DNA of 64,000 nucleotides from Pristiophorus japonicus (Eukaryota). The stretch spans positions 4,340,001-4,404,000 of the forward strand of contig NC_091995.1 in the NCBI RefSeq assembly GCF_044704955.1, written 5' to 3'. Both the position numbers and the translations under genes were made by a program. Shown one piece after another: positions 7,709-64,000 of the stretch. Each line of letters begins with the position of its first letter. Positions within the stretch are counted from its first letter, which is position 1. The notes under the pieces were generated by a model. It had not been told where the DNA came from. It made no database searches and was given only the letters and a program-made list of their open reading frames with translations.

Positions 7709-7712
7709 GTCT

Positions 7713-17699: not shown

Positions 17700-17918
17700 C
17701 CGGCCAATCACAGCACACAGCCCGCGCCCGCTCACAGGGGCAAAGATTGACGGCCGTTAAACATTAAATATTTAAACCCAACCGGCAAGTTCCGAGCCCG
17801 AGCCTCTAGCAACCCAAATCATGGCGCAAACCCCGCCTCCCGGCGGCGCTGATTGGCCAGTAACGCCGCGGTGAGGAGCTCCGGGGGGAGTGGATTGGTC
17901 GGAGCGCCTGTCACTCAG
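17700..17918 (+). promoter_or_regulatory. Truncated duplicate of the CCAAT/GC-box promoter at 45996-46285
   Basis: Near-identical to 45996-46200 (CCAATCACAGCACAC...GGCAAAGATTGACGGCCGTTAAACATTAAATATTTAAACCCAACCGGCAAG...CTGATTGG); ends before the ATF6B-like exon. Confidence 0.75.
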
Positions 17919-25600: not shown

Positions 25601-28230
25601 ACTGCCTTCTGTGGGTTAAAGACATTTCCTCTTTGCGCCGCTGGTATGGCTTTATTTCTTCCTGCATTTCTAATGGGACACTGGATCTGCACCCGTGAAG
25701 CACACAGTTTTTTTTTTAACTAAGGGGTCCTGGCTAGTCCAGGTTCTAATCTGTCGGGCGGTAACAGGTGATTGCTCGCTCTTGAGTGCTTCCATTACCA
25801 TAACTAAATCTGCGGGCTGTGCCATTTCCAACCCCATGGTGGGCAATGGCAGCCTACTGAGGGCATCGGTATAGTTTTCTGTCCCTGGCCTGTGGTAGAT
25901 AGCGTAGTTGTATGCGGACAACGTGAGCGCCCATCTCTGGATGTGGGCCGATACATTAGTATTTATCCCCATGCTTTCCGAAAAGAGGGATATCAGTGGC
26001 TTATGGTCAGTTTCCAGTTCAAATTTGAGCCCAAACGGATATTGATGCATTTTATTTACCCTATAAACACATGCTACCGCTTCCTTTTCGATTATGCTAT
26101 AGGCTCTCTCAGCCTTGGACAGACTTCTGGATGCATAAGTTGCAATTTCCCAGATTCATTAGCTTGTTGTAATACACACCCGACATTGCATGACGATGCA
26201 TCACAAGCTACTACCAAACGCTTACATGGATCATAGAACACAAGCAATTTGTTTGAGCATAACAGTTTTCTAGCTTTTATAAAGGCATTTTCTTGGTTTT
26301 TACCCCATGCCCATTCGTCTCCTTTACGCAGTGAAGCGTGCAGTGGTTCTAACAGTGTGCTGAGACCCGGTAAGAAGTTACCAAAGTAGTTCAGGAGTCC
26401 TAGAAACGACCGCAGCTCCATCACGTTCTGTGGCCTTTGTGCCTTCTTGATTGCCTCCATCTTCGAATCAGTGGGCCTGATGCCATCCACCGCGATTCTT
26501 CTCCCCAGGAACTCCACTTCAGGCGTCAGAAAAACGCACTTCGAGCGTTTTAACCTGAGAGAGAGAGAGTGAGAGAATTCAGTCGGCGAAATGATGCTCT
26601 CTCGTTGCAGCCGGTCCAGCTCCATCTCAACCCTCTCTCATCATGTACGGTATTGCTCTCGCCTTGTGAAGGATGGGTCGCGCCCCTGGAATTAGGTGGA
26701 TCTGCACTTTTGCTCCTTGGAACTTCCCGATGCCTGGTTCGAACAGCGAGGGGAACTTGTTTAGGACCTGGGCACATGAAGTGTTGTCGATGGGTGAGAG
26801 CGCTCGGACGTCATTCCAATTCCAGCGTATCTTTCCCAGCCAGCTCCTGCTGAGCAGCCTGGGGCCATTGCCCGGTACCACCCAGAGTGGTAACTTGTGC
26901 ACCGCTCCAGCGAAAGAGACCTTTACAGTAGCACTGCCGATTACGGGAATCAGTTCCTTTTGTGTATGTTCTCAGTTTAATGCGAATGGGACTTAGGACT
27001 GGCCTTGAGGCCTTGCCGCACCACAATTTATCAAAAGGACACCGGGAGTCCATTTAATTCAACCTTCAGCATTATCGGGGGACACTTTGTGGTAAATGTG
27101 TGCACCCCATGTATCTCTGCCTCCTCTGTCGGAGGCTCTGGTTCATCGTGATCTGCCGTGGATCTGTCCTTCTCTGCAACATGGTTTGCAGCTCGCCTGC
27201 ACATACATTGGAGATGTCGCATTGTTCCACAGCCCTTGCAAACGTATCCTTTGAAGTGGCATGAATGGAAACGATGATCACCCCTGCAACGCCAACAAGG
27301 TGTTAACGGGCTAGCATTCATCACCCTTGATGCTAGACTCAGACATCTGCGGACGTGCAGCTGCAGGCATGTGAGGCCTGCCCTGTATGTTACAATTCAA
27401 AAACAACATTACTTTGTTCACAGTACTTGTAGCGGCACTCGTGTGCTGAGAGATTTGCTTGGTATTGTCACTGGTGGCGATGAATGCCTGGGCTATCGCT
27501 ATGGCTTTATTCAAGGTTGCGGTCTCTACAGTCAAAAGTTTGTGAAGTATTATTTCATGGCCAATGCCAAATACAAAGAAGTCCCTGAGAATGTACTCCA
27601 AATGTCCTTCAAATTAGCAATGTCCTGCAAGGCATCTTAGCTTGGCGACATAGCTCACCACTTCCTGGCCTTCAGACCTCTTGCACGTGTAGAACTGGTA
27701 CCTTGCCATCAGAACGCTTTCCTTCGGGTTAAGATGCTCCCGGACAAGTGTGCACAAATCATCATACGATTTCTCTGCAAGTTTCGCTGGAGCAAGCAGA
27801 TTTTTCATGAGGCCATACGTTGGTGCCCCGCAAACGGCGAGGAGAATCACCCTTCGTTTGGCAGCGTTCGCTTCTCCTTCCAGCTCGTTGGCCACAAAGT
27901 ATTGGTCGAGTCGCTCCAAGAAGGCTTCCCAATCATCTCCCTCCGAAAATTTCTCTAGGATGCCCACTGTTCTCTGCATCGTTGCGGTGGGGTTCGATAT
28001 CTGTATCTCATAGCCAGTTGTAGTGTATGAATAAAGAGTCTGACCAGATACTGTGAGCTCAAAGTAAAGTGTGACCGTAGTCTTTTATTGCAGGTTTCCA
28101 GAGTGCCTTTCCAGCCTGTGAGGCTTCCTTAAATACAGGTGCTCCCAAGGGATTGTGGGATCCCTTGGAATTCTAGGGGATGAGCCCTCTGGTGGTTAAA
28201 CAAGGTATTTACAGGTTTACATATATAACA
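19632..28230 (-). mobile_element. Gypsy (Mag-like) LTR retrotransposon A, outer element, degenerate
   Basis: LTRs 19632-19837 and 28019-28230 (TG...CA); 5-bp TSD GTAAA; gag from 27979 with CCHC-type knuckles; RNase H and integrase fragments; RT core deleted near 26560-26580; purine tract next to the left LTR. Confidence 0.93.
20654..25198 (-). mobile_element. Gypsy (Mag-like) LTR retrotransposon B nested in the integrase of A
   Basis: LTRs 20654-20865 and 24988-25198; TSD CATAA/CATCA; PBS TGGCGACGAG (complementary to tRNA-Ser GCU 3' end); gag, protease LDTG, RT FQGD, RNase H CDAS, integrase VVDAYS/SNGQAER. Confidence 0.93.
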
Positions 28231-28637
28231 GTAAATAGTTGGGGTAAATAGTTGGAAATGAAGATGAATTCTCAGTGGGCCGATGTGGGCTGTGCATGTA
28301 TGGGTAGCGTGTTATGCACCCCATGCCCGGCTAACAGAACTCTATCCCTGTGCATTTTCAGCAGCGTGGCTTGGTGTTTATTAAGCATTGTGATCAATGT
28401 GCTGGTGACCTGTGATAGTTTTGCTTCCTTCTTTAGCAAACTTTTTTTGTCTTCACAGGAGCAGTCGAATCAATCGCAGAACCTCATTGACTCTGAACTT
28501 TCTACATTGCGCAATATTTTGGATGAAAAGGAATGGAACTTGGTCCAAGAACTGAATGAGGAAAAGGATATATTTTACTCAGAATGGAGACACATCTGCG
28601 AGAAATCCGAGACCATTCACGATAAGCTTTCCTTGTT

Positions 28638-29530
28638 GTAGATAAATGACCTGAATTTGGGGATAGTAAGTACAATTTTGAAATTATCATATGATACAAA
28701 ACTTGGCAATGTAGTGAATAGTGAGCAGGATAGTAGCAGACTTCAAGAGGACATTGACAGACTGGAGAAATGGGCAGACACATGGCAGACACAAGTTAAT
28801 GCAGATGAATGTGAAGTGATGCACTTTGGGGGGGGAACAACATGGAGAGGCAGTATAATCTAAATGGTGCTATTTTGAGGGTAGTGCAAGAACTGAAGGA
28901 ACTGGGGTGCAGGTTCACAAATCTTTGAAGATAGCAGGGCAAGTTGATAAGACAGCCAAGAAAGCTTGTGGGATACTTGGCTTTGCTAATGGGGATATTG
29001 AATTCAAAAACAAGGAAGTTATGCTGAACCTTTACAAATCACTGGTTAGGCCGCAACTGGAGTATTGTGTAGAATTCCGGAAACCACACTTGAGGAAGGA
29101 TGTCAAGGTCTTGGAGAGGGTAAGAAGGAGGTTTACTAGGATGATAGTAGGTATGAGGGACTTCAGTTATGTGGAGAGCTTGCAGAAGCTGGGATTGTTC
29201 TCCTTGGAGCAGAAAAAGTCAAAGGGACACCTAATAGAGGTATTCAAAATTCTGAGGGGTTTTGATTGAGCAAACGGGGAGAAACTGTTTCTTCTGGCAA
29301 GTGGATCGGTAGCCAGAGGTCATAGATTTAAAATAATTGGCAAGAGAACTTGAGGGAAAATGTGGAGATATTTTTTCAGATTTTTAGATTTGGGACCTGA
29401 ACGGGCGGTGGAAGCAGATTCCAGAGGGACTTTCAAAAGGCAATTGGACATGTACTTGAAGAGAACTAATTTGCAGGGTTATGGGGAAAAGGCTTGTGTG
29501 TGGGAATAAATTGGGTAGCTCTTTCACAGG
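28638..29530 (+). mobile_element. CR1 LINE 3' fragment (older subfamily)
   Basis: YDTKLG, LVRPQLEYC and LERVRRRFTR motifs. Confidence 0.85.
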
Positions 29531-45810: not shown

Positions 45811-45995
45811 CATTCCCGGGGAGGTTGCGGGTATTCCCGGGATTCTGTAGATATTGTGGGAGGCCTAGTTCGGTGACAATCGCAGATCCGCCCCGGAATA
45901 GACAAAACAATCTGTGAGCCTCCTGTGAAGCGCCTGGGGACCTTTTACTGCGTTAAAGGCGCTATATAAACACAAGTTGTTCTTTTCTCCCTCCC

Positions 45996-46522
45996 CGCCA
46001 ATCACAGCACACACCCCGCGCCCGCTCACAGGGGCAAAGATTGACGGCCGTTAAACATTAAATATTTAAACCCAACCGGCAAGTTCCGAGCTCGAGCCTC
46101 TTTCAACCGAAATCATGGCCGGAAACCCCACCTCCCGGCGGCGCTGATTGGCTAATGGCGGCATGGTGAAGAGCTCTAGGGGAAGCGGATTGGTCATCAC
46201 GACTGTCGCTCAGAGCGAGCGAGGCGGGTTTCCGGGGCGGGGCTCTCCTGGGGGAAGCGGATTGGCCAGAGCGCCTGTCACTCAGAGCGAGGGAGGCTAG
46301 TTTCCGGGGTGGGCCCGGACCTCACTGGAAGTTGGATTCGGAGTTCGGGCAGTGTGTTTGGGCTGAGCGCCAGTGACGCAGCGCTGGGCCCTTGTCTCGG
46401 CGAGTTAGAGCCGGTGGGAGCGGCTCACGGCGGCCGCCGCCTGCTTTTATACTCCGGGGGGGATTTAATTTCACACTTTGTATTATTCTTGTTATTATTC
46501 ACTCGGGGGGAGCCGGGGCGTC
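45996..46522 (+). promoter_or_regulatory. CpG-island promoter / 5'UTR of the ATF6B-like exon
   Basis: CCAAT at 45998; ATTGG at 46147, 46189 and 46261; GC box GGGGCGGGG; TGACGCA; internal ~72-bp duplication (46179-46313). Confidence 0.7.
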
Positions 46523-46592
46523 ATGGCAACGGGTTTGGTGAGCGAGGTGGACAGTCGCTTCATCCCCGGGAACCTGCTGAGCGGTGGCTGCG
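46523..46592 (+). CDS. ATF6B-like first coding exon (diverged; no later ATF6B exons recognised in window)
   Basis: Strong Kozak GTCATGG; MATGLVSEVDSRFIPGNLLSGGC resembles the recalled ATF6B N-terminus (human MAELMLLSEIADPTRFFTDNLLSPEDW); donor G|GTAAGG in phase 1. Confidence 0.6.
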
Positions 46593-46659
46593 GTAAGGAC
46601 AGTATTTAAACAGTGTGCAAGTTCCAGGTTACCATAATCCAGGCCGCTGATTGGAGGTG

Positions 46660-47300
46660 GGCAGGTACAGCAGGAGCGACGAGAGATTGCAGAGAGATGT
46701 GATCGGGGCCCAGAGGCAGCACGGGCCCAGCCCACACTGCGATATGTGAGTGCACTGGGTCCGTGCAGCAGAGCAGGTCTTCAGCCGTCTTGGTTAACCC
46801 TTGCCACTGGGTAAAGGCCGTGTGGCGGCTGATGTGCGATGGTCACCACACGTTAAAAAAAATCCAGGCACAGGCATCTTCCACCCTTCAACATGCCTCC
46901 TTGATAAAGTGCAGCATTCCCACCGACACCTGGGAGTCCCTGGCCAACGACTGCCTTAAGTGGAGGAAGAGCATCCGAGAGGGCACTGAGTACCTCGAGT
47001 CTTGTTGCTGAGAGCATGCATAGTATAGTATTAGGCAGTCCCTCATATCGAGGATAACCTGCTTCCACACCAAAAATAGATGAGTTCACAGGTGTTTCAG
47101 TGAGGGACCCTACAATCTAGGTCCAGAACTGCATACTAAAGGATGGAAGATGCCTGTGAATGGATTCTTTTAATGTAGGGTTGTTGTTGCACACCAGCCA
47201 CCACATGGGCTTGACAGAGCTAGGTCTTGATCCAGTGGCAAGGGTTAACCAAGACGACTGGAGACCAAGCTCTGCTGCACGGACCTAGTGCGCACGGACG
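46660..47300. mobile_element. Two RTE-derived elements tail-to-tail (plus to about 47015; minus 47030-47300)
   Basis: The plus copy joins the SINE-like body to RTE ORF sequence ASLIKCSIPTDTWESLA...WRKSIREG; the minus copy carries the RTE tail. Confidence 0.75.
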
Positions 47301-47469
47301 CACCTACTATCCATAGATCGCCTTGTGGGTTGGTCTATGCTGCCACTGGGCCCTCCTCATCTGGGCAGAAACCAAGCGCAGGCAGGGGAAGGAGCGCGTT
47401 GCAAACCAGACTCACTCCCACCCTTTCCTTCAATGACTGTCTGTCCCACCTGTGACAGAAACTGTAATT

Positions 47470-49103
47470 GGCCTCACTAATACCCTGTATAACTGTAGCA
47501 AGACTTCCCTGCTTTTATATTCCATCCCCTTTGCAATAAAGGCCAAGGTTCCTTTGGCCTTCCTGATCACTTGCTGTACCTGCATACTACCTTTTCTGTT
47601 TAATGCACCAGGTCCTGGTGCGCTGTAGCACATTGCAATTTTTCTACATTTAAATAATAACCTGCTCTTCATTTTTTTTTCTGCCAAAGTGCATAACCTC
47701 GCACTTTCCAATATTACACTCCATTTGCCAAATTTTTGCCCACTAGCTTAGCCTGTTTATGTCCTTTTGCAGGTTTTTTGTGTCCTCCTCACACATTGCT
47801 TTTCCTTCTATCTTTGTATCATCAGCAAACCTGGCTGAGTTCATCCAAGTTGTTTAATATCTATTGTAAATAGTTGGGATCCCAGCACTAATCCATGCAG
47901 CACCCCACTAGTTACTGATTGCCAACCCGAGAATGAACCATTTATCCCGACTCTCTGTTTTCTGTTAGCTACCCAATCCTCTATCTGTGATAATATATTA
48001 CCCCCCCAACCCCGTGAACTTTTATTTTGTGCAATAACCTTTTATGTGGCACCTTGTCAAATGCCTTCTGGAAATCCAAATACACCACATCCACTGGTTC
48101 CCCATTATCCACTCTGTTTGTTACATCCTTAAAAAACTCCAGCAAATTTGTCAAACATGACTTCCTCTTCATAAATGCATGCTGACTCTGCCTGACTGAA
48201 TTATGCTTTTCCACATGTCCTGCTACTGCTTTAATAATGGACTCCAACATTTTCCCAACCACAGATGTTAAGCTAACTGGTCTGTAGTTTCCTGCTTTTT
48301 GTCTGCCTCCTTTTCCAATCTGCTGGGACCACCCCAGAATCCAGGGAATTTTGGTAAATTGCAACCAATGCATTCACTATCCCAGCCACTACTACTCTTA
48401 AGACCCTAGGATTCAAGCCATCTGGTCCAGGGGATTTATCTGCCTTTAGTCTCATTATCTTACTGAGTACCACCTTCTTAGTAATTGTGATTGTGTTAAG
48501 TTCCTCCCCCCTATAACCCCTTGACTATCCACTGTTGGGATATTGTTTGTGTCCTCTATTGTAAAGACTGATACAAAATGTTTGTTCAGAGTTTCTGCCA
48601 TCTCCATGTTTCTCATCAGTAATTCCCCAGTCTCGTCCTCTAAGGGACCAACGTTTACTGTAGCTACTCATTTCCTTTTTATATACATATAGAAACTCTT
48701 GCTATCTGTTTTTATATTTTGTGCTAGTTTACTTTCATAGTCTATCTTCCCTTTCTTAATCATTTTTTTAGTCATTCTTTGCTGGCCTTTAAAAGCTTCC
48801 CAATCTTCTGTCCTCTCACTCATTTTGGCCACTTTGTATGACCTTGTTTTTAATTGGATACCATCCTTTATTTAGCCACAGATGGCTATCTTTTCTCTTA
48901 CACCCTTTCCTCCTCGCTGGAATGCATTTTTGTTAGAGTTATGAAATATCTGGTTTGAGTTCCAACTTTCTTGCCCTCCATCTGAATTTGAAATTCAACC
49001 ATGTTCTGATCACTCATTCCAAGGGGATCCTTTACTAGCAGATTGTTTATTAATCCTGTCTCATTACACAGGACCAGATCTAAGATAACCTGCCCCCTGG
49101 TTT
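47470..49103 (-). mobile_element. CR1 LINE ORF2 fragment
   Basis: KSPGPDG, NYRPVSLTS and YLDFQKAFDKVPH motifs; same subfamily as 1988-5890. Confidence 0.92.
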
Positions 49104-49139
49104 CAGGGAGGATAAAGAAAAAAAGGGAGGCTTATCAGA

Positions 49140-52100
49140 GATTGCAAGAGAGATTGAGTACAAAAGCAGGGAGGTCCTGCTGCAACTGTATAGGGTATTG
49201 GTAAGGCCACACCTGGAGTACTGCGTGCAGTTTTGGTCACCTTACTTAAGGAAGGATATACTGGCTTTGGAGGGAGTACAGAGACGATTCACTAGGCTGA
49301 TTCTGGCGATGAGGGGGTTACCTTATGAGGATAGATTGAGTAGACTGGGTCTTTACTCGTTGAAGTTCAGAAGGATGAGGGATGATCTTATAGAAACATT
49401 TAAAATCATGAAAGGGATAGACAAGATAGAGGCAGAGAGGTTGTTTCCACTGGTAGGGGAGACTAGAACTAGGGGGCACAGCCTCAAAATACGGGGGAGC
49501 CAATTTAAAACCGAGTTGAGAAGGAATTTCTTCTCCCAGAGGGTTGTGAATCTGTGGAATTCTCTGCCCAAGGAAGCAGTTGAGGCTAGCTCATTGAATG
49601 CATTCAAGTCACAGATAGATTTTTAACCAATAAGGGAATTAAGGGTTACGGGGAGAGGGCGGGTAAGTGGAGCTGAGTCCACGGCCAGATCAGCCATGAT
49701 CTTATTGAATGGCGGAGCAGGCTCGAGCGGCTAGATGGCCTACTCCTGTTCCCAATTCTTATGTTCTTATGATTAGCAGCTTTGAAAGTGGATAAGTCCC
49801 CAGGTCCAGATGAAATGAATCCCAGGTTGTTACGCGAAGCACAATCCTCTCTGGCTTCAGGTCTGGTGCCAGAGGACTGGAGGACTGCTAATGTGGTACC
49901 TTTGTTTAAGAAGGGAGAAAGGAATAGACCAAGTAATTACAGGTCAGTCAGCCTAACCTCAGTGGTGGGAAAATTATTGAAAAAAATCCAGAAGGACAGG
50001 ATAAATCTTCACTTAGAAAGATTAGTCAAGGACAGTCAGCATGGATTTATTAAGGGAAGGTCGTTTTCTGACTAACTTGATTGAATTTTTCAAGGAGGTA
50101 ACCAGGAGGGTCGATGAAGGGAAAACGTATGATGTAATGTATATGGATTTTAGCAAAGCTTTTGATAAGGTCCCACATGGCAGACTGGTCACGAAAGTAA
50201 AAGCCCATGAGATCCAGGGCAAAGTGGCAAGTTGGATCCAAAATTGGCTCCGAGGCAGGAAGCAAAGGGTAAAGGTTGATGGGTGTTTTTGCAACTGAAG
50301 GATGTTTCCAATGGGGTTCTGCAGGGCTCCTTTGCTTTTTGTGATATACATCAATGATCTAGACTTGAAAATAGGGGGTATGATTAAGAAGTTTGCAGCT
50401 GCTACTAACATCGGCTGTGTGGTTGATAATGAAGAAAGATGCAGACTGCAGGAAGATATCAATCAAGTGGGCAGAACAGTGGCAAATGGAATTCAATCCA
50501 GAGAAGTATGAGGTAATGCATTTGGGGAGGGCTAATAAGGAAAGGGAATACACATTAAATGATAGGATACTGAGAAGTGTAGAGAAACAAAGGGATCTTG
50601 GAGTGCATGTCCACAGACCCCTGAAAGTAGCAGGTCAGGTAGATAGGGTAATTAAGAAGGCATACAGAATGCTTGCCTTTATTAGCTGAGGCATAGAATA
50701 CAAGAGCAGGGGGGTAATGCTTGAACTGTATAAAACACTGGTTAGGCCACAGCTGGAATACTGCATGCAGTTCTGGTTATCGCCTTACAGGAAGCACGTG
50801 ATTGCACTGTAAAGGGAACAGAGGAGGTTTACGAGGATGAGCTATGAGGACAGATTAGATAGACTGGAATTGTTTTCATTGGAACAGAGGAGGCTGAGGG
50901 GAGATTTCATAATTTTATATACCTTAATGAGGGGTCTGGATTTGTGGATAGAAAGAACATAACATAAGAACATAAGAATTAGGAACAGGAGTAGGCCATC
51001 TAGCCCCTCGAGCCTGCTCCCCCATTCAACAAGATCATGGCTGATCTGGCCGTGGACTCTGCTCCACTTACCCGCCCGCTCCCCGTAACCCTTAATTCCC
51101 TTATTGGTTAAAAATCTATCTATCTGTGATTTTAAACAGAGGCGTTATATTAGCTGCTTTCCAATCCGTTGGTACCTCCCCAGAGTCCAGAGAATTTTGG
51201 TAGATTATAACGAATGCATCTGCTATAACTTCCGCCATCTCTTTTAATACCCTGGGATGCATTTCATCCGGACCAGGGGACTTGTCTACCTTGAGTCCCA
51301 TTAGCCTATCCAGCACTACCCCCCTAGTGATAGTGATTGTCTCAAGGGCCTCCCTTCCCACATTCCCGAGACCAGCAATTTTTGGCATGGTTTTTGTCTT
51401 CCACTGTGAAGACCGAAGCAAAATAATTGTTTAAGGTCTCAGCCATTTCCACATTTCCCATTATTAAATCCCCCTTCTCATCTTCTAAGGGACCAACATT
51501 TACTTTGGTCACTCTTTTCTGTTTTATATATCGGTAAAAGCTTTTACTATCTTTTTATGTTTTGTGCAAGTTTACTTTCGTAATCTATCTTTCCTTTCTT
51601 TATTGTTCTTGGTCATTCTTTGCTGTCGTTTAAAATTTTCTCAATCTTCTAGTTTCCCACTAACCTTGGCCACCTTATATGCATTGGTTTTTAATTTAAT
51701 ACTCTCCCTTATTTCCTTGGTTATCCACGGCTGGTTATCCCTTCTCTTACCGCCCTTCTTTTTCACTGGAATATATTTTTGTTGAGCACTATGAAAGAGC
51801 TCCTTAAAAGTCCTCTACTGTTCCTCAATTGTGCCACCATTTAGTCTGTGTTTCCAGTCAACTTTAGCCAACTCTGCCCTCATCCCACTGTAGTCCCCCT
51901 TGTTTAAGCATAGTACGCTCGTTTGAGACACTACTTCCTCACCCTCAATCTGTATTACAAATTCAACCATACTGTGATCACTCATTCCGAGAGGATCTTT
52001 TACTAGGAGATCATTTATTATTCCTGTCTCATTACACAGGACCAGATCTAAGATCGCTTGCTCCCTTGTAGGTTCTGTAACATACTGTTCTAAGAAACAA

Positions 52101-52486
52101 TCCCGTATGCATTCTATGAATTCCTCCTCAAGGCTACCCCGTGCGATTTGATTTGACCAATCGATATGTCGGTTAAAGGACTTATTTCCCTTAGCAGAGG
52201 GGTCAACTACCAGCGGGCATAAATTCAAAGTAATTGGTAGAAGGTTTCGAGGGGATTCGAAGGGAAATTTCTTCACGCAGAGGGTTGTGGTGGTCTGGAA
52301 CTCACAGCCTGAAAGGGTGGTCGAGACAGAAACCCACACCATACTTGGATGTGCACCTGAAGTGCTGTAACCTACAGGGCTATGGACCGAGAGCTGGAAA
52401 GTGGGATTAGGCTGGATAGCCTCTTGTTAGCCGGCATGGACACGATGGGCCGAAAGGGCCAGCTTCTGTCATTCTATGATTCTATG
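49140..52486. mobile_element. Cluster of four CR1 fragments (+49140-49772, +49773-50955, -50956-52177, +52178-52486)
   Basis: RT motifs and 3' tails. The minus copy has its tail joined directly to upstream ORF2 near 51130 (internal deletion). Confidence 0.88.
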
Positions 52487-52742
52487 AAATGAGCAAAGCC
52501 GAAAAGCTTGTCTCTTATCTCAGTCTCTGGAATTCCATGAATTCTCTCAGCTTTTCTCACAGACTGGTTGTCGCTTTGCTAACAAGGCTTGTTAAAGTCT
52601 GCATTTTTAATATTTGGTCAAGCAGGCCCAATGCCTCTGTCTTCCATGTTAAATCTAACTGGGTCCACCCAAGGCATGTTACACTACTTTATAAGCATGA
52701 TTATTTAAGAATCGGCATGCACTGATAACAGTTACAAGGAAC

Positions 52743-53118
52743 GGTAGTATAGTGGTAATATTACTGGACTAGTAATCCAGCAGGTCTGGACTAATGATCA
52801 GGGGACAGGAGTTCATATCCTACCATAGCAGCTGGGAAATTTAAATTCAGTTAAATAAACCTGGAATAAAAAGCTAGTATCAGTAATGGTGACCATGTAA
52901 CTATCGGATTGTCATTAAAAACCCATCTGGTTCACTAATGTCCTTCAGGGAAGGAAATCTGCCGTCCTTACCCGGTCTGGCTCATATGTGACTCCAGACC
53001 CACAGCAATGTGGTTGACTCTGAACTTCCCTCAGACATGGCCGAAAGCCTCTCGAGGATAATTAGGGACGGGCAATAAACACTGGCCTTGCCCACATCCC
53101 ACGAATAAATAAAAAAAT
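52743..53118 (+). mobile_element. tRNA-derived SINE, near full length
   Basis: A-box-like TAGTATAGTGG and B-box-like AGTTCATATCC; tail GGGCAATAAA...CCCACATCCCACGAATAAATAAAAAAA. Confidence 0.8.
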
Positions 53119-53184
53119 ACAAACTTAAACCTACAACTAATAATGCTTATTTCATTTCATCCGTGTTCGCTCGGAGCTCATGGA

Positions 53185-54362
53185 CTTCTTGTCTGAAAGA
53201 TTGGGACCATCCACTCAGCTGCCTCTGCAACTTCCCTTCCTTCCCCTAGCCCACCGGGCCAAACTTCCTCTGAGGCTCCCCCTGCCTTAGCCCTGAACTC
53301 GCATCTTTCTCCAGTTTCTCTCTGATCTCCCCTTGACCACGAGACCCACTTGCTGCTCCCTTGACCCTATTCCCACCCAACTTCCTTTTCTGACTCCCAT
53401 GTTGGCAGACATTGTTAATGGTTCTCTCTCCTCAGGTACTGTCTCCCTCTCCTTCAAATCTGATGTCATGACCCGTCTCCTCAAAAAAAACAACCCTTGA
53501 CCCCTCCGTCCTTGCAAACTACCGCCCCATCTACAACCTCCCTTTCCTCTCCAAAGTGCTTGAACGTTGTCACCTCCCAAATCTGTGCCCACCTTTCCCG
53601 GAACTTCATGTTTGAATCCTTTCAAACTGGATTCTGCCCCTGCCACAGTACCGAAACGGCTCATCAAAGTCACATGATATCCTTTGAGTGTGTGACAATT
53701 GCAAGTGAATCCTTCATGTCCTTCTCGACATGTCTGCAGCCTTTGACATGGTTGACCTCCTCCAATGCCTCCCCGCCATCGTGGATAGGACAGCACTCGC
53801 CTGGTTCCATTCTTATCTATCTAACCGTAGCCAGAATATTACCTGAAATGGCTTCTCTTCCCACATCGTAACCTCTGGTGTCCCCCAAGGATCTATCCTT
53901 AGCCCCCTCCTATTTCTCATTGATGTGCTGCCCCTTGGCGACATCATCCGAAAGCACAGTGTCAGTTTCCACATGTATCCTGATGACACCCAGCTCTACC
54001 TCACCACCACTTCATCCACGGTCTCTAAATTGTCAGACTGCTAGTCCGACCTCCAGTACTGGATGAGCAGAAATTTTCTCCAAATTGCGTTGCCTAGCCA
54101 ACGACTCCATCCCTCTCCCTGGCATCTGTCTGAGGCTGAACCAGACTGTTCGCAACCTAGGTGTCATACTTGACCCAGAAATGAGCTTCCGGCCACATAT
54201 CTGCAGCATAACTAAAACCGCCTATTTCCACTCCGCAACATCGCCCGCCTCCGCCTCTACCTCAGCTCATCTGCTGCTGAAAGTCTCCTCCATGCCTTTG
54301 TTACCTCTAGACTTGACTACTCCAAAGCACTCCTGGCTGGCCTCCCACATTCTACCCTATGT
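53185..54362 (+). mobile_element. L2-clade LINE RT fragment
   Basis: [43 protein letters not shown] and VRNLGVILD motifs. Confidence 0.88.
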
Positions 54363-54622
54363 AGGATTTCTAAATCTCTCTGGGTTTATATTTGATGGTG
54401 AGACGATTCGTTCAAAACAATTGGAAGGGTTTATTAAAAACATACACACATGCACATTAGCAGCAGTGATCAGTTATCTTAAAAAGACACACACATGCAC
54501 ATTATCAACAGTTGTCAATTATGTTATAACAGAACTACAATGAGGTTATAATAACAAGCGATTACTTCCCTTTTGCTGACTGGTTTGGACACACGGCTTG
54601 CTGTTTTAACTGGTCTTCAGGG

Positions 54623-55390
54623 ATTTTTTTTTCAAAAATATACTTTATTCATATAAAATTTTCACAATACATTGGAAAATAGTTCAGTGCCTTGCGGTCA
54701 GCAATTCCATACAATTCGTTTGGAAGCTGACAGCCGTTCCGTACAATGCACTAGTGTGCATTTCATTTCAAGGTGCAGTTTAGTACATTCCGTAAATCAC
54801 GTTACATGTAGTACTGTGCAAATGAGGGTATTACATGGAGCAGAGATGAGAACTGGTTTACATTAGATTCCAGGATACATTTCAGTCCTGATCACAAATC
54901 ACATTACATGTAGCACTAATAAGATGAATGCAGTACACGGACCGGATGGGGGTACATTTACATTTCTTTACGAGTTACTAAACAGTGCAGAGACTTTCAT
55001 TATACATGGCACACACACATGTTTTTCAGCACAGATGTTTTTCAGTACATGGTGCTCTATGTATACAAGCAGTTTAACAAGTACATCTCGAGGGGAGTCT
55101 GATTCCATCCCCTGGGTTTACCATGGCAGAAGGGCCTTAAACTGTGGCTCTTCCCCATCGTGCCTTTGCGGCAACTGCACCAATCTTTAGTGCGTCCCTC
55201 AGCACGTACTCCTGGACCTTGGATTGCGCCAGTCTGCAACACTCGGCCATGGATATCTCCTTGCTCTGGAAGACAAGCAAGTTTCGGGAAGACCAAAGTG
55301 CGTCTTTCACCGAGTTGATGGCCCTCCAGCTGCAGATGATGTCTGTCTCAGTGTGCGTCCCTGGGAACAGTCCGCAGAGCAGAGTTCTGT
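54623..55390 (-). mobile_element. Tx1-like non-LTR 3' fragment
   Basis: ...KDALWSSRNLLVFQ...KARWGRATV*, then 3'UTR, AATAAA (about 54645) and poly(A). Confidence 0.78.
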
Positions 55391-55391
55391 C

Positions 55392-56495
55392 TACATTGAA
55401 AGTTGGCATACAGATACAGCTGGTGGTGAAGAAGGCAAATCGTATGTTGGCCTTCATAGCTAGTGGATTTGAGTATAGGAGCAGGGAGGTCTTACTGCAG
55501 TTGTACAGGCCTCACCTGAAATATTGTGTTCAGTTTTGGTCTCCTAATCTGAGGAAGGACGATCTTGCTATTGAGGGAGTGCAGCGAAGGTTCACCAGAC
55601 TGATTCCCGGGGTGGCTGGACTGACATATGAGGAGAGACTGAATCAACTGGGCCTTTATACATTGGAGTTTAGAAGGATGAGAGGGGATCTCATAGAAAC
55701 ATATAAGATTCTGACGGGACGGGACAGTTTAGATGCGGGTAGAATGTTCCCGATGTTGGGGAAGTCCAGAACCAGGGGACACAGTCTTAGGATAAGGGGT
55801 AGGCTATTTAGGACTGAGATGAGGAGAAATTTCTTCACTCAGTTGTTAACCTGTGGAATACCCTACCGCAGAGAGTTGTTGATGCCAGTTCATTGAATAT
55901 ATTCAAGAGGGAGTTAGATATGGCCCTTGCGTCTAAGGGGATCAAGGGGTCTGGCGAGAAAGCAGGAAAGGGATACTGAGGGAATGATCAGCCATGATCT
56001 TATTGAATGGTGGTGCAGGCTCGAAGGGCCAAATGGCCTACTCCTGCACCTATTTTCTATGTTTCTATGTGCCCGTTTGAGGATACTCTTCAAATTGAAC
56101 CTGTTTTTAGGGATACAGGCACTAGTAGGCACGTCACATAGAAATTAGGTGCAGGATTCGGCCCTTCGAGTCTGCACCGCCATTCAATAGATCTGGCTGA
56201 TCATTCAACCTCAGTACCCCTTTCCTGCTTTCTCTCCATACCCCTTGATCCCTTTGGCCATAAGGGCCATATCTAACTCCCTTTTGAATATATCTAATGA
56301 ACTGGCCTCAACAACTTTCTGTGGCAGAGAATGCCACAGGTTAACCACTCTCTGAGTGAAGAAGTTTCTCCTCATCGGTCCCAAATGGCTTACCCCTTAT
56401 TCTTAGACTGTGACCCCTGGTTCTGGAACTCGCCAGCAACAGGCCTCTAACCTGTCCAATCCCGTCATAATTTTATATGTTTCCACATGTTTCTA
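55392..56495. mobile_element. Two CR1 3' ends tail-to-tail (+55392-56068, -56135-56495)
   Basis: RT C-terminal motifs and tails in opposite orientations. Confidence 0.88.
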
Positions 56496-56989
56496 TTATA
56501 ACATTTCTGTGAAGCACCTTTGGATGTTTTACTACATTAAAGGCGCTATATAAATACAAGTTGTTGCTGTTCTTGTTGCTGAGTATGGAAGGTGTTTAAC
56601 CCCCCAGGTATTTAAACCCCAATTTGTGGTGCATTAAACTGGGAACAGTATTCAGTTGTACATTGAGGCGTCAGTTCCAGATTTTGTTCATTTTATTTTT
56701 TACATTACCACAAAATACCACAGTGCTGAGGCGGGTGGGTGTAATGTGATTTTCAGAAACTGTGACCTCCCTCGCTGGAAGTCCCGGTGTTTTCTGCTGT
56801 TCTCAGATTCTCGTTTCCTCCCCTCGGGGCGGCTCTTTTCTCCTGTTGAGAAACAGGAAATCAGTCAGAAAGGGGGATCTTGGTGAAAGCATCTCTCCCC
56901 CGATCCCCGGCGCATCCCTCCCCTGATCGCCAGCGAGTTTCTCCCCCAATCCCGGGTGAATCTCTCTAACTCTCTGCTTTTTCTCCCAG

Positions 56990-57510
56990 TCTCTGTGATC
57001 CTGGATGTGGAAACAGCGAATCCATATCTTGAGGTGTCTGAGGATCTGAAGAGTGTGAGATGGACCTGGACCAGGAGGAATCTCCCTGACACCAAGAAGA
57101 GGTTTACAGCCCGGCCCTGTGTGCTGGGATCGGACGGATTCACATCGGGGAGACATTACTGGGAAGTGGAGGTGGCAATGAATCGGGGCTGGATTCTGGG
57201 AGTAGCCGCAGAGTCTGTGGAGCGGAAGAGAGGGGTCAGTTTGAGCCCGGAGAATGGATTGTGGACCATCGGGCGGGAGGATGATCGGTTTACTGTAAAC
57301 TCCTCCCGTCCATCCCTTCTCCATGTCAGTAAGATCCCCGGGAAGGTGGGAGTTTATCTCAGTTACGAGTCCGGGACACTTTCATTTTACGCCTTGGACA
57401 CCCGGTCCCATCTCCACACCTTCACTGGGAATAAATTCACGGAGAAACTTTATCCTTTCTTTGGGATTTGGGATGAGCACAAGTGTCTGAGAATCTGCTC
57501 CAGTCTGTAA
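56990..57510 (+). CDS. Orphan B30.2 (PRY/SPRY) exon with intact frame, close paralog of the last exon of the intact TRIM gene
   Basis: Acceptor TTTTTCTCCCAG in phase 1; no stops; GRHYWEVEV and VGVYLSYESG motifs; 3'UTR 57511-57940 homologous to about 29825-30362 inverted, with AATAAA at 57698. No 23-nt or 116-nt linker exons upstream. Confidence 0.7.
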
Positions 57511-60479
57511 AAGGGGCGGGGCCTCAGGCCGGCCCACGACATCCATGACCTCACAATGACTTGACCCCGCACGGATAGGGTCAGGAGCAGAGGTCAGGGA
57601 TCAGTTGTTAGAAAATGTAATTTCCAAATAATGCCTTGTAAAATCCCAATGAGACTGTAAATACAACCGATACAAATATAAAATGTGAGGAGACTCAAAT
57701 AAAAAGTAAAAGCCGACAGCAACTCCATCCCAGCCCTTTCTCATCACTGCCCTGCTCCTTTGTATTAAAAAGCAGGTATAAGTTGTGCTCTGAAAATGAG
57801 CACATGCCTCAGGTATTCAGCACCACACAGCATTGGTGATGAGAAACACACAAACTATCTCTTTTCAAAAAGAGGGGAGTTTGTAAATCTTAAGTTTAAA
57901 AGGCTGCACGTCATTGTAGTGCCGCTTTCAGCCAGGAGATGGTGATGGCGAGCTGAACAAAGCTCTGTAAAGTTTTACAGTGCAATATCACCACCTGCTG
58001 GAGTAAATCAGTACTGCGGACATACCAAAAAATTTAGAAACACTCAACTAACTTAACAATTCAGGTCAGATCTTTCTGCAGAACTGAAAGATAATTGGAT
58101 CAGAAAGAAGGACGTAAACTAAACAGGGGCCTAGAAAGATTAAAGCCCCTGAGTACATAACCTGAGCTGACATTCCAGTGCAACACTGAAACAATCAGAA
58201 GGAAGGAGCTTGCATTCATATCAGTCCTTCAGGATCTCAAGACATCCCAAAACACGTCACAGCGCAGTGAAGTGCAGTCACTGTTATTTAGAGGCACCAT
58301 CTTTAGGTTGAATTGTTGGAGACCCTGTCTGCCTGTTCAACTGGATATTAAAGATCAGGAGACACTATTCAAATAAGGGCAGGCAGTTTACCCATGTCCC
58401 GGCCAACATTCCTTCTGCAATCAGTTGGTGGATCTGGGGGAGTTGGCCAATGGAACTTGCCCTTATTTACAAAGCTGACATGGTAATTTGGTGGGTTTTT
58501 CAGTGAATGGTCTAAAAATTTACAGCTGGATCTCGGTAATTTACAAGAAAGTTGGCAGTCAGGCTGGGTTTAAATAAAACGAATAAATATGATAAGTAGT
58601 TGTTATCTGGATGGCCAGTACCGGATGTAATTTACTGTTCCTGTATTGAGGTCAATTCAGGACACCAGGGGAATGAGTTTCATGTCGGAGACCAGCAGTG
58701 TCAGGTTGCCAACACTTGATTTCAAGGAAATGCATTTTGCATTTAAAATGGAAACATCTTGTGTGCAGACACTGAGACTTGATTATGGAATCAAAATAAA
58801 CCAAAGGTTAAAAAACTCTGTCAGTGTAAGTAAGGGGTGCTGGATTATCCACCCATTTCCACTCTCTATTGGTGGTCCGCTCCATCATTGCATACGGTCG
58901 AGGTTCCATTGTAGTTTATTTCGAGAGAGAGAGATGATTGTGACGTCTCTCTGTGCTGATTGGATCAGTTGCTACTATTTGATTACAGTTTAGAGTTTAG
59001 AATTCCCTGTGTGTGGCCCTGATGGCTCAGTGGGTAAATGCTCAGCCTGGTGTGTGTGGTACTGAGCTGTGCAGAGCTGGGAGGGCCCCAGCCTGTACTG
59101 AATTAACAGAACAATGGTGGGGATACTACGGCTGTCAGAGGGGAGCGAGTTCCACATTCTCATCACTCACTGGGTAAAGCAGTTTTTACTGACTTCCCTA
59201 TTGGATTTATTGATGACTATCTTATATTTATGGCTCCTAATCCTGATCTCCCCCGCAAGTGGAAATATCTCCTATACATCCACCCTAACCTTTCATCATT
59301 TTAAAGACCTCTATCAGGTCACCCCTCCCTCAGCCTTCTCCTTTCTAGATAAAAGAGCCCCAGGCCGGGGACTATCCAGTGACTCCTCTTGCAGGTGAGG
59401 ACACAACTGAGCTCAGCCCTGCTGTTCCCGAGCCTCTAGTTAGTGCCTTCAGGAGGAGAGGCGGGGAAAGTGAGGTCGAGGGACTTCTACAAAGAAAGCC
59501 ACAGTATAAACAGGCTTTGTACTGGCTGTGCTGGTGCTCTGCTTACTGTGCCACGGTGCACGCTGCACTCCACACATGGGGATCTCCCAGTCTGAGCTGT
59601 GCTGCCCTCTAAGCTGGACTGAAATCTCCCTTACAGTCTCCAATGCATTTACAAAGTGTTGTTCTCCGGCAGTTTTAGAAACTACATTTCCTGATTCACC
59701 TCGGAGTCAGGAATGAAAATATTATCAGGAAACTGTGATTTTACAGACCAGCTCTCTGGTATTTTTTATTTGCTTTACTCTTTCTTTCTTTAAACAGGTA
59801 AATGGTAAGGATTTGAAACCCTGCTCCCACTATTGGATCACACTTTATTTTCGCCCATTTACTGAATGTCTCCTTTTGCACATCAATTACTTTCATCATA
59901 ATTGATGTAAATATTGTAAAACAATTTTCTCAATTAAAGTAAACTCGAAATCTATTAACTGACTTTGATAATTGTAATCACCCTGTACATCAATAAAGAG
60001 CCTGTTTTAATCTCCCTCTGGCGTTGTCTGAAGGTTGGTTGAGGTAACACGAATTTTAAAAGGAAGCCATTAGATCAGAGATGTATCTCACACGCATTTT
60101 AAAAGACAGATGAATTCATGTGAACTTCAGCGCAAGGCAAAAACTATTCGTCACCCTGTTTTATGAGGTTACTGACTTTCCCAGATACACAGATGGTGCC
60201 CACATTGCTGGGTAAACCCGTACATTTTACCCCCTTGACACAAAGGGTTTACATTCGCTGAATGATCAGATTGTGTATGACAACATGCAAAGGCTCCATC
60301 CAAGACGCCATCGAATTTCAAGACCCAAATGTTTCCCAGATTTATCTCAACAATCGCCAAAATTATATACAATTGGTGAAAGTATGTTCCAGCTTACAAT
60401 GAAGTAGATTTTAGTCTTTCTTGCCGGGGTGTTGTGTTGCTTGTTAAAACGCACAATGAAAAATGTGATACAGAGGATC

Positions 60480-61121
60480 GTAGGCTGATAACAGAAACCG
60501 CCTGATTTCATCCCATTCATTTCAGTTGAAATGAATTTGTGTTCTGTTACCGGGGTGTGATCCGCTGAGCAGATTTTTTTTTCTGCTCCCCGCTCAGATG
60601 ACCCGGAATATCGGATGGTAAAGACAATCATTCCAATGTTGGATATGATGACTCAAGTGGAACATTTTGCATGATGGCATTGCATAAAAAATCTATGCAA
60701 AAGATTAATTTATTTCAAATCAGCATCGGTCTCTCCTCTGTCCCCCTCCTTTCGTCCCGCCCTTCCCCCACGCTCAGCACAATACCCATTTGTCTCAGTC
60801 TGATCCAAGGTGCAAAGTGCAACGTCATAGACAGTGAATTTAACAGTATTTCATCGAGATGTGAGCAGCACTTCCAGGGATTCAAAAAATGATCTGTGAT
60901 TGGGAACCGGGTTTGGATCCACCCACAGAAACATGAGTCCAGCAGTTTCAATCAGGAAGTACTGACACTGGTCATGTCTTCCAGACAGCTCCTTGACATT
61001 GAGGGCACTTTGAGTTTTAGGGTGAGCGGCTGCAATCATTAACACGATTCAGTTTATGGATCTCTATCTCACACCGTGTGTCACCAGACCGTTTGTAGTC
61101 AGTAACGAGTTGGGTCTGGAG
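60480..61121 (+). promoter_or_regulatory. Inverted duplicate of the TRIM upstream region, including mini-exon 60974-61021
   Basis: Reverse-complement homolog of about 34434-35080; MSSRQLLDIEGTLSFR|GTGAGC; truncated at a hAT-like end. Confidence 0.8.
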
Positions 61122-61941
61122 CAGTGTTGGGCAATATACGTCCCGCGGGCCATATCCCTCCCGCGAAGTCATTCTATCCGGCCCGCTGGACGGGACGAGT
61201 AGTACGCGAGCAGGAGCTTGAGCTGCACATTCGTCTATCCACTTTCACTTCTGATCGGTCAGAGACAGAACCGAACTGGAGCCGAGGAAAAGCCATAGTA
61301 ATACTTAATTCAAATTAATAATTCGCAAAAGCGATTCTCCCTAAACCAATCTGAAAAGGACCGTTCCGCGAGTCTGGGCCCCAATGGCGGATGGACGTAC
61401 CCAGTATGCACGGCGCAGTGGAATATGCCCTATCCATTTTAGAGTGGGGTCATGGCAGCTCATCGCCACAACTCATTTACCGCGCTGCACCTTTCCTCTC
61501 GCTGTATCCAGAGTACGACGGCAGGGGAGTTCTCATCTGGCACCAATTGGGACGGCATTAGTCATCTGTGCAGCGGGACATGAGGATGCCTGAGGTGGGG
61601 AATTGATGCTGACACAGGCTCTAAAGAGGGAATAGTTCTATTTCACAGCACTGAGTTACAGAGACCAGAAGATACCACAACATTTTCAACTTTTATATTT
61701 GATCCATTTCTAAGCAATACCGAACACACGTTGTGTGTGTAAAATAGAACCTGACTACAATCTGAATTTATGTTTATGCAACGTTTATGTTGTGTGCAAT
61801 GTTGGCTCCAATTGTTTTCACTCACGGCCCTTTAAATTTGCTGCCCGTCCGGCCGCGATTGGTGGAAGGTTGGTGGACGGCCCCCAACAACTCACCAAAA
61901 CTTGTTAAGTGCCCTCCAGCCCAAATAATGTCCCAGCCCTG
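61122..61941. mobile_element. hAT-like non-autonomous element
   Basis: Left end CAGTGTTGGGCAA...CCCGCGGGCC...CCGGCCCGC and right end ...CCCAGCCCTG. The 8-bp flanks do not match. Confidence 0.55.
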
Positions 61942-63089
61942 TACCAGAGTGAGCTGTGAGCTGCAGGAACCCGGGGACCTTGCTGCCTGTAATATTGCTC
62001 CACAGGCGGAAGGTGGCGCTACACCGCCGTGTCTCAAGTGGATTGCCGCTGTCCGGGTCACTCCAGCTGCTTTCCCACAATGGCCATTGGCCACACTTCC
62101 CCAGGGGCCGCCAGCTTCACTCACTCTCGGAAGGAGCCAGATGGAGCTTCCTTGAATGAACAATTCCTGAATCTGTTCAGCGACCCGTCTGTGTGAGATT
62201 CAGAGTCTGAAATAGAAAAGCACGCGTCCAGTGACAATGATCTTGTCAATGGTGAGTTCTGAGCCCAACCTCATCAGATCTGTCTCATTTTAATCGGTGT
62301 TTAACTGCAGAGCAGAGGGGCGCTGCAGGGTGAGTGAAGGCGGCTGAAGAGCGGGAGGGGGGAGCTCGGGGAACGCCTCAGAGCCCCGGGAAAGACCGGC
62401 TTTAGAAAGGTCCAGAGTCCAAATCCATCGGTGGGGGTTCCCGGGGACACTTGGAGACATTTGCCGAGAGTCAGTCCGCCTCTGAGGGTAAGTCCGCGGG
62501 CCGGATGAACCTGTTCCAGGGTCTGATCCCACACCCCTGCTGTAAACAGATGTTTCCCCTCACCATCCAGATGCTGTCACTTTTTCCCATTTGCTCCTCA
62601 CAGCAGCGGACATCTGGGGCATTACCAGAAACCTCAGTGGCTGTAATTTACTGACTGAATTCAATCTAGTCTCCTCCTACAATACTAAACTCTCTTTAAA
62701 TAGTAGATATTATCACAAAGACCAGAGGTTTACCGATTGAAATGACTGAAATATTTAGCTGAAATTAAACAGTGGTGTGAGACACTGAAATATGGCAAAG
62801 TCTAACGGAGTGATCTATATAAAAATAGTTGCCACGCTAAAGTTACCAGCGGCTCAGTTGACCCTGGTGAGATTATCTGGAGATGCAGTATATAAATCAG
62901 TGGAGTTTAGCCTCAAATCCCTGGGCTGGGAACTCCCACCCTCCCTTTGGCAATTAATGGGCAGGGCTGGGGGAGTGAGTGGGGCCTGGGCGCGGTCCAT
63001 CTATTTCACCGGCCATTGGATTTCCTACCACACACGGACTGGTGAATTGAAATGAAATTGAAAGGTCAGAATTACTCCAGTTTTAAATA

Positions 63090-63215
63090 CAAAAACAAAA
63101 TACTGCTGATGCTGGAAATCTGAAATATCATAAAATGCTAGAAACACTCAGCAGGTCAGGCGGTATCTGTGGAGACACAAACAGAGTTAATGTTTCAGAT
63201 CAATAACCTTTCAAA
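63090..63215 (-). mobile_element. Penelope-like pLTR fragment
   Basis: GATGCTGGAAATCTG...ACTCAGCAGGTCAGGC...CTGTGGAG...GTTAATGTTTCAG; related fragments at 16440-16545 and 36405-36505. Confidence 0.6.
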
Positions 63216-63314
63216 TATTGGGACTCGGTCTTTACTGAAATGTGACTGCCGAGCAGCAGAAACCTTCTGTGCTATCCCAGGTATGTCCTAGGTTCGGGGA
63301 ATGGGAGTTGGAGG

Positions 63315-64000
63315 GAGCGGGCAGTGATGGGGAGAGCGAGAGGGGGCTGTGATGGGGAGAGGGAGGGGGCAGTGATCGGGAGAGGGATGGGGCAGTGATG
63401 GGGAGAGGAAGGAGGCAGTGTTGGGGAGCAGGAGGGTTGGCGATGAGGAGAGGGAGGGGTGGTGATGGGGAGAGGAAGGGGGCAGTGATGGGGAGAGAGA
63501 GGGGCAGTGATGGGGAGAGGGAGGGGGCAGTGATGGGGAGAGGGAGGGGGCAGTGATGGGGAGAGGGAGGGGTGGTGATGGGGAGAGGGAGGGGTGGTGA
63601 TGGGGAGAGGGAGAGGCAGTGATGGGGAGAGGGAGGGTGCAGTGATGGGGAGAGGGAGGGGGCAGTGATTGGGAGAGGGAGGGGCCAGTGATGGGGAGAG
63701 GGAGGGGACAGTGATGGGGAGAGGGAGAGGTGGTGATGGGGAGAGGGAGGGGCAGTGATGGGTGGTGATGGGGAGAGGGAGGGGCAGTGATGGGGAGAGG
63801 GAGGGGGCAGTGATGGGGAGAGGGAGGGGCCAGTGATGGGGAGAGGGTGGGGGAAATGATGGGGAGAGGGAGGGGGCAGTGATGGGGAGAGGTAGGGGCC
63901 AGTGATGAGGAGAGGGAGGGGGCAATGATGGGGAGAGGGAAGGGCAGTGATCGGGAGAGGTAGAGGGCAGTGATCGGGAGAGGGAGGGGGCAGTGATGGG
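63315..64000. repeat. 23-bp G-rich minisatellite (CAGTGATGGGGAGAGGGAGGGGG)n
   Basis: Directly visible; continues beyond the window end. Confidence 0.95.

Follow-up and report, generated by a model that had tools for sequence, protein, structure and literature searches.

Introduction

The closest described relatives of the gene analysed here are the fish class IV TRIM39/bloodthirsty-like (btr) genes, in which RING, B-box and coiled-coil (RBCC) exons are joined to a B30.2 exon, and new domain combinations arising by exon shuffling have been described for fish TRIM39-like genes (PMC3137616). We analysed a 64,000-nucleotide stretch of the shark Pristiophorus japonicus (C19:4,340,001-4,404,000 of a 5.9 Gb genome; hereafter the window), in which a promoter and first exon homologous to those of ATF6B precede a lone B30.2 exon. 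Assembled RNA contigs place the exons of these two unrelated parent genes in one spliced transcript, as a group property of three near-identical copies of the unit.

The chimera shares with fish TRIM39/btr genes a related B30.2 domain, a multigene cluster that is MHC-linked (MHC, major histocompatibility complex) and fast evolution of the B30.2 (PMC3137616), whereas it lacks the RING, B-box, coiled-coil and linker exons, takes its 5' end from an unrelated gene and cannot be an E3 ligase by itself. Like the 3'-truncated segmental duplicates SRGAP2B/C, ARHGAP11B and NOTCH2NL-NBPF, it keeps a promoter and first exon and gains its downstream exon by splicing (PMC6169893); unlike them, its donor gives 23 codons only, so that the acceptor gene supplies nearly all of the protein; its fusion leaves the frame open, and about 50 copies of the donor cassette exist. 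Shuffling at the B30.2 exon boundary likewise produced TRIMCyp and the zebrafish finTRIM-cyclophilin fusion (PMC3137616), but those genes keep the RBCC and replace the B30.2, whereas the chimera keeps the B30.2 and replaces the RBCC. Gene conversion and shuffling of B30.2 exons have also been reported for zebrafish NLRs (10.1101/027151).

By its defining features the gene is neither a TRIM nor an ATF6; it belongs with the chimeric genes that promoter-keeping 3'-truncated duplicates are known to form. Another parallel is offered by the snake PRY-SPRY-only proteins ohanin and vespryn, which also carry a stand-alone B30.2 behind a borrowed N-terminus and are secreted with a signal peptide; the leader of the chimera is instead acidic, Gly/Pro-rich and predicted to be cytosolic, and no link to venom has been shown. 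We found no report of an ATF6B-B30.2 fusion in the open-access literature, and TRIM, B30.2 and ATF6B are absent from the main text of a study of the cartilaginous-fish MHC (PMC10751288).

Results

A two-exon gene with a complete B30.2 exon

The gene lies on the plus strand of the window, in a large TRIM39-like cluster on C19 that adjoins a prefoldin-6-like gene. A CpG-island promoter (45983..46330; 86-87% identity to C19:6982344-6981633) leads into a 5' untranslated region (UTR; 46331..46522) and the coding part of exon 1 (46523..46592), which consists of 23 codons plus one nucleotide, ends in a phase-1 donor (GTAAGG) and descends from exon 1 of ATF6B. Since RNA cover begins at about 46331-46339, the transcribed first exon is about 260 nt long, longer than its 70-nt coding part. 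The ATG has G at -3 and +4, and there is no upstream ATG in the 5' UTR. Positions 46001-46500 have a GC content of 0.59 and an observed/expected CpG ratio of 0.94; a motif scan found ETS-like and GC boxes together with CCAAT (45998) and ATTGG (46147, 46189, 46261). The same scan gave no exact interferon-stimulated response element in the promoter and no exact match to the endoplasmic reticulum (ER) stress response elements ERSE and ERSE-II or the unfolded protein response element (UPRE) in the window, paralog or parent promoter, so inducibility of the chimera promoter by ER stress is not supported; one single-mismatch ERSE occurs in the window promoter only, in neither paralog nor parent.

The GT..AG intron (46593..56989; 10,397 nt) begins with sequence from ATF6B intron 1 (46593..47019; 84% identity to C19:6981680-6981256) and ends with sequence from the last intron of TRIM39-like genes (56484..56989; 84-88% identity to C19 B30.2 upstream sequence), matching what precedes the B30.2 exons at C19:4.049, 3.987 and 3.949 Mb. 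Judged by repeat depth, the intron is mostly LINE/SINE-like repeats (long and short interspersed nuclear elements), and no RING, coiled-coil or linker exon lies between exons 1 and 2 on the plus strand. A polypyrimidine-CAG acceptor directly precedes the coding part of exon 2 (56990..57510), a complete PRY-SPRY (B30.2) domain with both Pfam PF13765 and PF00622 above cut-offs; the stop codon is 57508-57510, and the joined frame of 196 aa contains only this terminal stop. An earlier note, made from the letters alone, had described the CpG/CCAAT promoter, the 70-nt exon with strong Kozak context and phase-1 donor, a mostly transposon gap of about 10.4 kb and a stop-free B30.2 exon whose phase-1 acceptor yields a 196-aa open reading frame (ORF), and each of these elements proved to be in place. 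That note had also given the exon its own AATAAA, which is present at 57698. The 3' UTR (57511..57800) is TRIM-derived, with homology to TRIM 3' flanks reaching about 57900, and contigs extend past the AATAAA to at least 57800, the end of the stretch compared, so the 57698 AATAAA is only a candidate end signal; an ATTAAA lies at 57764.

The chimeric unit occurs three times, with exon 1 at C19:4386523, 4711054 and 4910127. Exon 2 of the two paralogs is about 98% identical to the window copy, and the coding part of exon 1 differs at 0 of 70 positions among the trio while the 5' UTR differs by 6-7%. Three 196-aa P. japonicus proteins of this structure are in UniRef, one of which (P0122) matches the window residues; P0001, the 196-aa cluster representative, carries PRY and SPRY only. 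The gene model is thus already in automatic annotation, under a name that does not reflect its ATF6B origin: the three entries are called TRIM39-like E3 ligases, yet have no RING, B-box or coiled coil.

Exon 1 is spliced to the B30.2 exon

Junction data consist of assembled contigs from runs X22, X23 and X24, all from one study that records no library type; X1 and X2 are from other organisms, and runs with shares of 0.04-0.05 were left out of the evidence. The GT..AG joint 46591/2 to 56989/90 was found in three of the four runs compared (X22, X23 and X24; depths 316, 107 and 108), and was not found in X1; X1 and X2 gave no contig matching exon 1, which is no proof of absence. In the junction contig, 76 nt of exon 1 that occur in the trio alone lead into exon 2, which here has C at 56999. 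In both conspecific runs compared, exon 1 is covered from about 46331 to 46592 and cover falls to zero over the adjoining intron at 46605-46660, the pattern that RNA would give. The 46592-to-56990 junction for which the earlier note had proposed a search therefore exists, and exon 1 is spliced to the B30.2 exon rather than to ATF6B exon 2. Transcription from the promoter-exon cassette and splicing to B30.2 hold for the trio as a group, and we regard the spliced chimeric gene as almost certainly real. A processed retrogene was rejected, because the 10.4-kb intron is present and none of the 58 genomic matches listed (150 of 502 candidates scored) covered residues 1-196 of the protein in one match.

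The promoter and first exon derive from ATF6B

The parental first exon, a 73-nt phase-1 exon at C19:6981753 on the minus strand, lies 2.6 Mb from exon 1 of the chimera and is followed on the same strand by downstream exons of its own (bZIP at 6892997, luminal exons to 6814502); bZIP and luminal exons were found only at this locus. Its peptide is conserved in 12 of 12 protein matches (one named as trout), none of which has a B30.2, and the exon ends at the same place in most of them. The parent is assigned to ATF6B rather than ATF6A by synteny and by motifs that we take to be of ATF6B type, not by a tree. A fibrinogen-C gene stands tail to tail with the parent gene (C19:6.555-6.576 Mb), a second ATF6 paralog is on C8, and ATF6b has been placed near TNX in sharks (PMC11401434). 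Sequence homology ties exon 1 and its promoter to the ATF6 paralog linked to TNX and the MHC. When the parental 52-aa frame served as a protein query, none of 11 candidates scored, but this search was insensitive, missing P0001 too, and an Atlas search with an ATF6 luminal stretch gave no usable match.

The chimera shares with ATF6B its promoter, 5' UTR, first 8 codons, phase-1 donor and about 430 nt of intron 1, whereas its 196-aa frame has no bZIP, transmembrane segment or luminal domain. Divergence from the parent is 12.8% in the promoter (-520..-181) and 9% in the 5' UTR; in the coding part of exon 1 every difference (11 substitutions and the loss of one codon) falls beyond codon 8. These changes remove the acidic residues and the tryptophan from the second half of the conserved ATF6B motif, which in the chimera leader has become a Gly-rich stretch.

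The second exon is of TRIM39-like origin and is predicted to fold as a complete B30.2 domain

Exon 2 matches the B30.2 exons of the cluster at 84-92% identity, a match that takes in the closing 500 nt of the intron as well as the 3' flank, and its protein is about 73-81% identical to neighbouring shark TRIM39-like exons. By this homology the second parent is the last exon of a TRIM39-like gene, so that both exons have been traced, as expected under the captured-promoter, exon-shuffling origin that had been suggested for the locus. A C-terminal B30.2 of TRIM39-like type is present; the gene falls outside class IV TRIM, since RING, B-box and coiled coil are missing.

A structure model built on an 82-row alignment (a single-sequence model reached a predicted local distance difference test score, pLDDT, of only 31) gave the 196-aa protein a pLDDT of 86, with a complete B30.2 fold and residues 1-19 disordered. 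Butyrophilin B30.2 domains were the closest folds (template modelling score 0.90 to BTN3A1, against 0.85 to TRIM21). The leader is acidic and Gly/Pro-rich, and the only hydrophobic stretch runs into the first domain strand; by hydropathy, the single measure used, the best 11-residue mean within the first 35 residues is 2.22, which we read as the stretch overlapping that strand. The protein is accordingly predicted to be cytosolic, a monomeric domain under a housekeeping-type promoter. A search with the leader found only P0001 among 7 candidates, and the leader occurs in 0 of 119 other B30.2 homologs in a list that holds no other squalomorph sharks, which hints that it may be lineage-restricted.

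Codon changes before and after the split of the three copies

As the fusion is common to all three copies, differences among them postdate it, and we used pairwise and private-site counts in place of branch-specific dN/dS. Within exon 2 the trio shows 6 silent and 3 replacement differences, against an expected silent share of 0.30 at a transition bias of 5.9 (p=0.025). Between the window and the 4.71-Mb copy there are 2 replacements, compared with 9.6 expected at the non-coding divergence of 2.7% (P=0.004). These counts point, modestly, to purifying selection on the open frame since the trio split; the B30.2 exon would then not be evolving neutrally, and none of the four outcomes that the earlier note had listed against itself came up. 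We consider it probable that the chimera is translated and selected.

The trio forms a clade with support of 100 in the B30.2 exon tree, with a poorly supported nearest relative (55) and a long stem branch (0.084) that carries no stop or frameshift. Bases private to the trio and fixed before its split comprise 15 replacement and 3 silent changes, which is not beyond neutral (p=0.17), so positive selection on the stem was rejected as not significant. The 15:3 ratio before the split does differ from the 3:6 ratio after it (Fisher p=0.026). Since the earlier pattern differs from the later one but not from neutrality, the counts do not separate relaxation from adaptation. In the remaining B30.2 exons, too, dN exceeds dS (0.087 vs 0.069; 210 pairs), as reported for fish TRIM39-like domains (PMC3137616).

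The promoter-exon cassette is a dispersed family

The first 20 coding bases of exon 1 occur in 51 genome copies (at most one mismatch; a control pattern gave 0), 31 of them on C19 including the parent. Among 53 copies examined, the parent counted, 33 keep the ATG, open frame and phase-1 donor (25 of 31 on C19). The cassette is therefore not unique, with dozens of copies in the TRIM cluster and elsewhere; this breadth, the three copies of the chimera and the paralog type of the junction contigs all go beyond the earlier note. A coiled-coil remnant cut by LINE-like sequence occurs 27 times in the 1.46 Mb examined, mostly downstream of a cassette. RNA contigs show cassette copies spliced to it, some from the normal donor (C19:5046537 to 5043101) and others from an internal one (C9/C3678 type); the products either are short or lose the frame. 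We found a complete spliced frame in no set other than the trio.

The internal donor, in phase 0 after codon 5 (46523-46542 in the window), lets some copies join the coiled-coil remnant in frame, and the chimera may have begun as a gene with a coiled coil and B30.2 but no RING. A processed genomic copy of this splice lies at C12:111286105 (minus strand; L106): its exon 1, of ancestral type, runs straight into the remnant and then a LINE fragment, and a contig of run X24 matches it (depth 9). Many dispersed copies begin 134-228 nt before the ATG, near the RNA start, which suggests that they arose by retroposition. Five copies (C4:127472901, C4:142007922, C6:233165719, C7:46841540 and C29:15768981) form a clade with support of 100; here exon 1 breaks off after about 11 codons and gives way to LINE-like sequence, and the group behaves as a small retroposed family.

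At C19:5.13-5.58 and 5.86-5.87 Mb a tandem array with a period of about 39 kb carries in each unit an exon-1 copy, an opposite-strand full TRIM gene and, about 11.4 kb beyond the exon-1 copy on its own strand, a type-B B30.2 exon. In the ten units with this arrangement the type-B exon is open in nine; the loose ends listed (12 of 14) include no junction from exon 1 to it, and in the one unit checked it is preceded by a TRIM linker exon. At C19:9437693-9450556 (L089, L090) a B30.2 exon and its 3' flank are collinear with window 56611-63377 but run in the opposite orientation to an exon-1 copy close by, and opposed LINE ends flank them on both sides. An inversion would interconvert the two layouts in either direction, which we treat as a lead. 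The low-copy segment 54625-55390, also at C19:9.446 Mb, was discarded as a synteny marker, as it behaves as a separate insertion.

Neighbouring features in the window

At 762-818 on the minus strand is the first exon of a gene that we take, from its peptide, to be prefoldin-6-like; a further exon lies 7.5 kb beyond the window edge (C19:4333259). This first exon is single-copy in the genome save for a partial match on C9, and its presence fits an MHC-region location. An apparently intact TRIM39-like gene with RING, B-box, two coiled-coil exons, linker exon and B30.2 occupies 34110-30366 (minus strand). A broken TRIM on the plus strand (6026-11257) has a frameshifted coiled-coil exon (about 6130) followed by an open type-B B30.2 exon, and a second ATF6B promoter copy at 17689-17918 (plus strand) has lost exon 1; 10.5 kb downstream of it, 28456-28650 (plus strand) is the family's LINE-truncated coiled-coil remnant (cut at about 28640). 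The coiled-coil remnants are thus damaged, as had been said of them. Two or more decayed gag-pol-like stretches appear in the ORF list at about 20000-28100 (minus strand), which from reverse transcriptase, RNase H and integrase motifs are presumably of Ty3/gypsy type. The 24-bp unit before the B30.2 acceptor (56892-56966) forms kilobase tandem arrays in several paralogs, for example at C19:4181005-4182551 and C19:9716433-9719877.

Discussion

With moderate confidence, we favour an explanation in which a two-exon ATF6B/TRIM39-like chimera would make a 196-aa cytosolic PRY/SPRY-only protein that is likely a decoy against neighbouring TRIM ubiquitin ligases. An early copy of the cassette would have sat upstream of a TRIM coiled-coil exon that was later cut by a LINE, and a rearrangement of the cluster, to which the inverted layout at C19:9.44 Mb is a lead, would then have set one cassette before a lone B30.2 exon. 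The phase-1 donor of the cassette fits the phase-1 acceptor of that exon, and the codon counts suggest that the open frame has been kept by purifying selection since the three copies split. The disordered leader, with the acidic/aromatic half of its motif lost, is predicted to supply little beyond a start codon and a spacer. A protein without RING, B-box and coiled coil is capable of neither TRIM-type ubiquitination nor dimerisation, so a PRY/SPRY-only protein that bound a TRIM target would shield it, and a non-ubiquitinating competitor seems the most likely role. The choice of a decoy over any other role is tentative and held at somewhat less than even confidence. In zebrafish, the RBCC and B30.2 of FTR83 are both required for activity, and the related full-length FTR82 showed no dominant-negative effect (PMC5445110); a decoy effect therefore cannot be assumed.

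Several observations weigh against this explanation. The junction runs all belong to a single study and consist of assembled contigs; in both of the junction contigs read, position 56999 is C (Thr27, as in both paralogs) where the window has Ile27, and no contig has the window letter at 57030 or 57241. The selection test is based on 9 differences. Of the 14 residues private to the trio, 9 fall where 21 other B30.2 exons show no variation, and a period of relaxed constraint before the trio split is possible. Splicing of the cassette to broken remnants, with short or out-of-frame products, means that cassette splicing does not by itself imply function. The allelic mismatch might mean that the chimera is functional while the window copy is weak or silent and most of the RNA stems from those at C19:4.71 and 4.91 Mb, a serious possibility that falls a little short of even. 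A variant contig over 46425-46515 has a depth of 147, compared with 19 for the window-specific one, and the window promoter is 7-8% divergent from those of the paralogs. Yet window-specific contigs do exist, namely that 91-nt 5' UTR contig (matching only the window copy among the copies fetched) and a 138-nt contig unique to the window copy (57432-57569; depth 122). Rare variants are moreover lost from contigs, and genes cannot be ranked by contig depth. Since another two exon-2 contigs lack an exact match in any of the three copies, the animals that gave the RNA probably have alleles other than those of the assembly. A weak window copy would in any case be compatible with the decoy explanation, not exclusive of it.

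The transcript could also be a by-product, a duplicating housekeeping promoter splicing to whatever acceptor follows and the frame being intact only because it is young. The 51 cassette copies, the broken coiled-coil remnants among the other splice products and the fit of the private changes to neutrality agree with this, and fusion transcripts in human segmental duplications are reported to be common and rarely to alter an ORF (PMC6169893). Set against these are the deficit of replacements among the paralogs, the identity of the exon 1 coding part beside a 5' UTR that differs by 6-7%, and the length of the undamaged stem branch. Nor would conversion from TRIM-linked exons easily mimic the pattern, as it would import mostly replacement changes, dN exceeding dS against 20 of 21 such exons; overall we judge a by-product unlikely. 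We are likewise doubtful that the chimera is a stand-alone sensor or adaptor, neofunctionalised to bind a new ligand or partner (for instance through B30.2 pairing as in butyrophilins) rather than to compete with its parent TRIMs. The attractions of this view are the clustering of the 14 private residues at 130-138, 154-162 and 183-189, two of which stretches we take to lie near loops v3 and v4, the shift from 15:3 to 3:6 across the split, and the butyrophilin domains as closest folds; but the excess of private changes falls short of significance against neutrality, no effector domain is present in the protein, and similarity to butyrophilin folds is general for the family. That the B30.2 exon simply ends an ordinary TRIM gene with exons elsewhere, exon 1 belonging to another transcript, is extremely improbable: 14 other same-type B30.2 exons also have no RING or coiled-coil match within about 9 kb upstream, so being 'orphan' by distance alone proves little, but the direct splice junction, with no TRIM exon inside the intron, already largely refutes it.

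More speculatively, and in our view improbably, the cassette may be a mobile 'first-exon module' at about 50 sites that has repeatedly switched on TRIM fragments, yielding a selected family of RING-less PRY/SPRY decoys (the trio, and perhaps the nine further open type-B B30.2 exons of the 39-kb array) that damps the MHC-linked TRIM repertoire. The decoy explanation for the trio is narrower. The locus makes a gene birth visible within one genome, with both parents, intermediate forms and the splice junction, in a shark MHC-linked TRIM cluster, and documents dozens of reuses of a single housekeeping promoter and first exon. A further outcome is a corrected annotation for three UniRef proteins named 'E3 ubiquitin-protein ligase TRIM39-like' that have no ligase domain. 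If the decoy role is true, sharks would have a B30.2-only regulator of TRIM immunity, a proposal that is directly testable.

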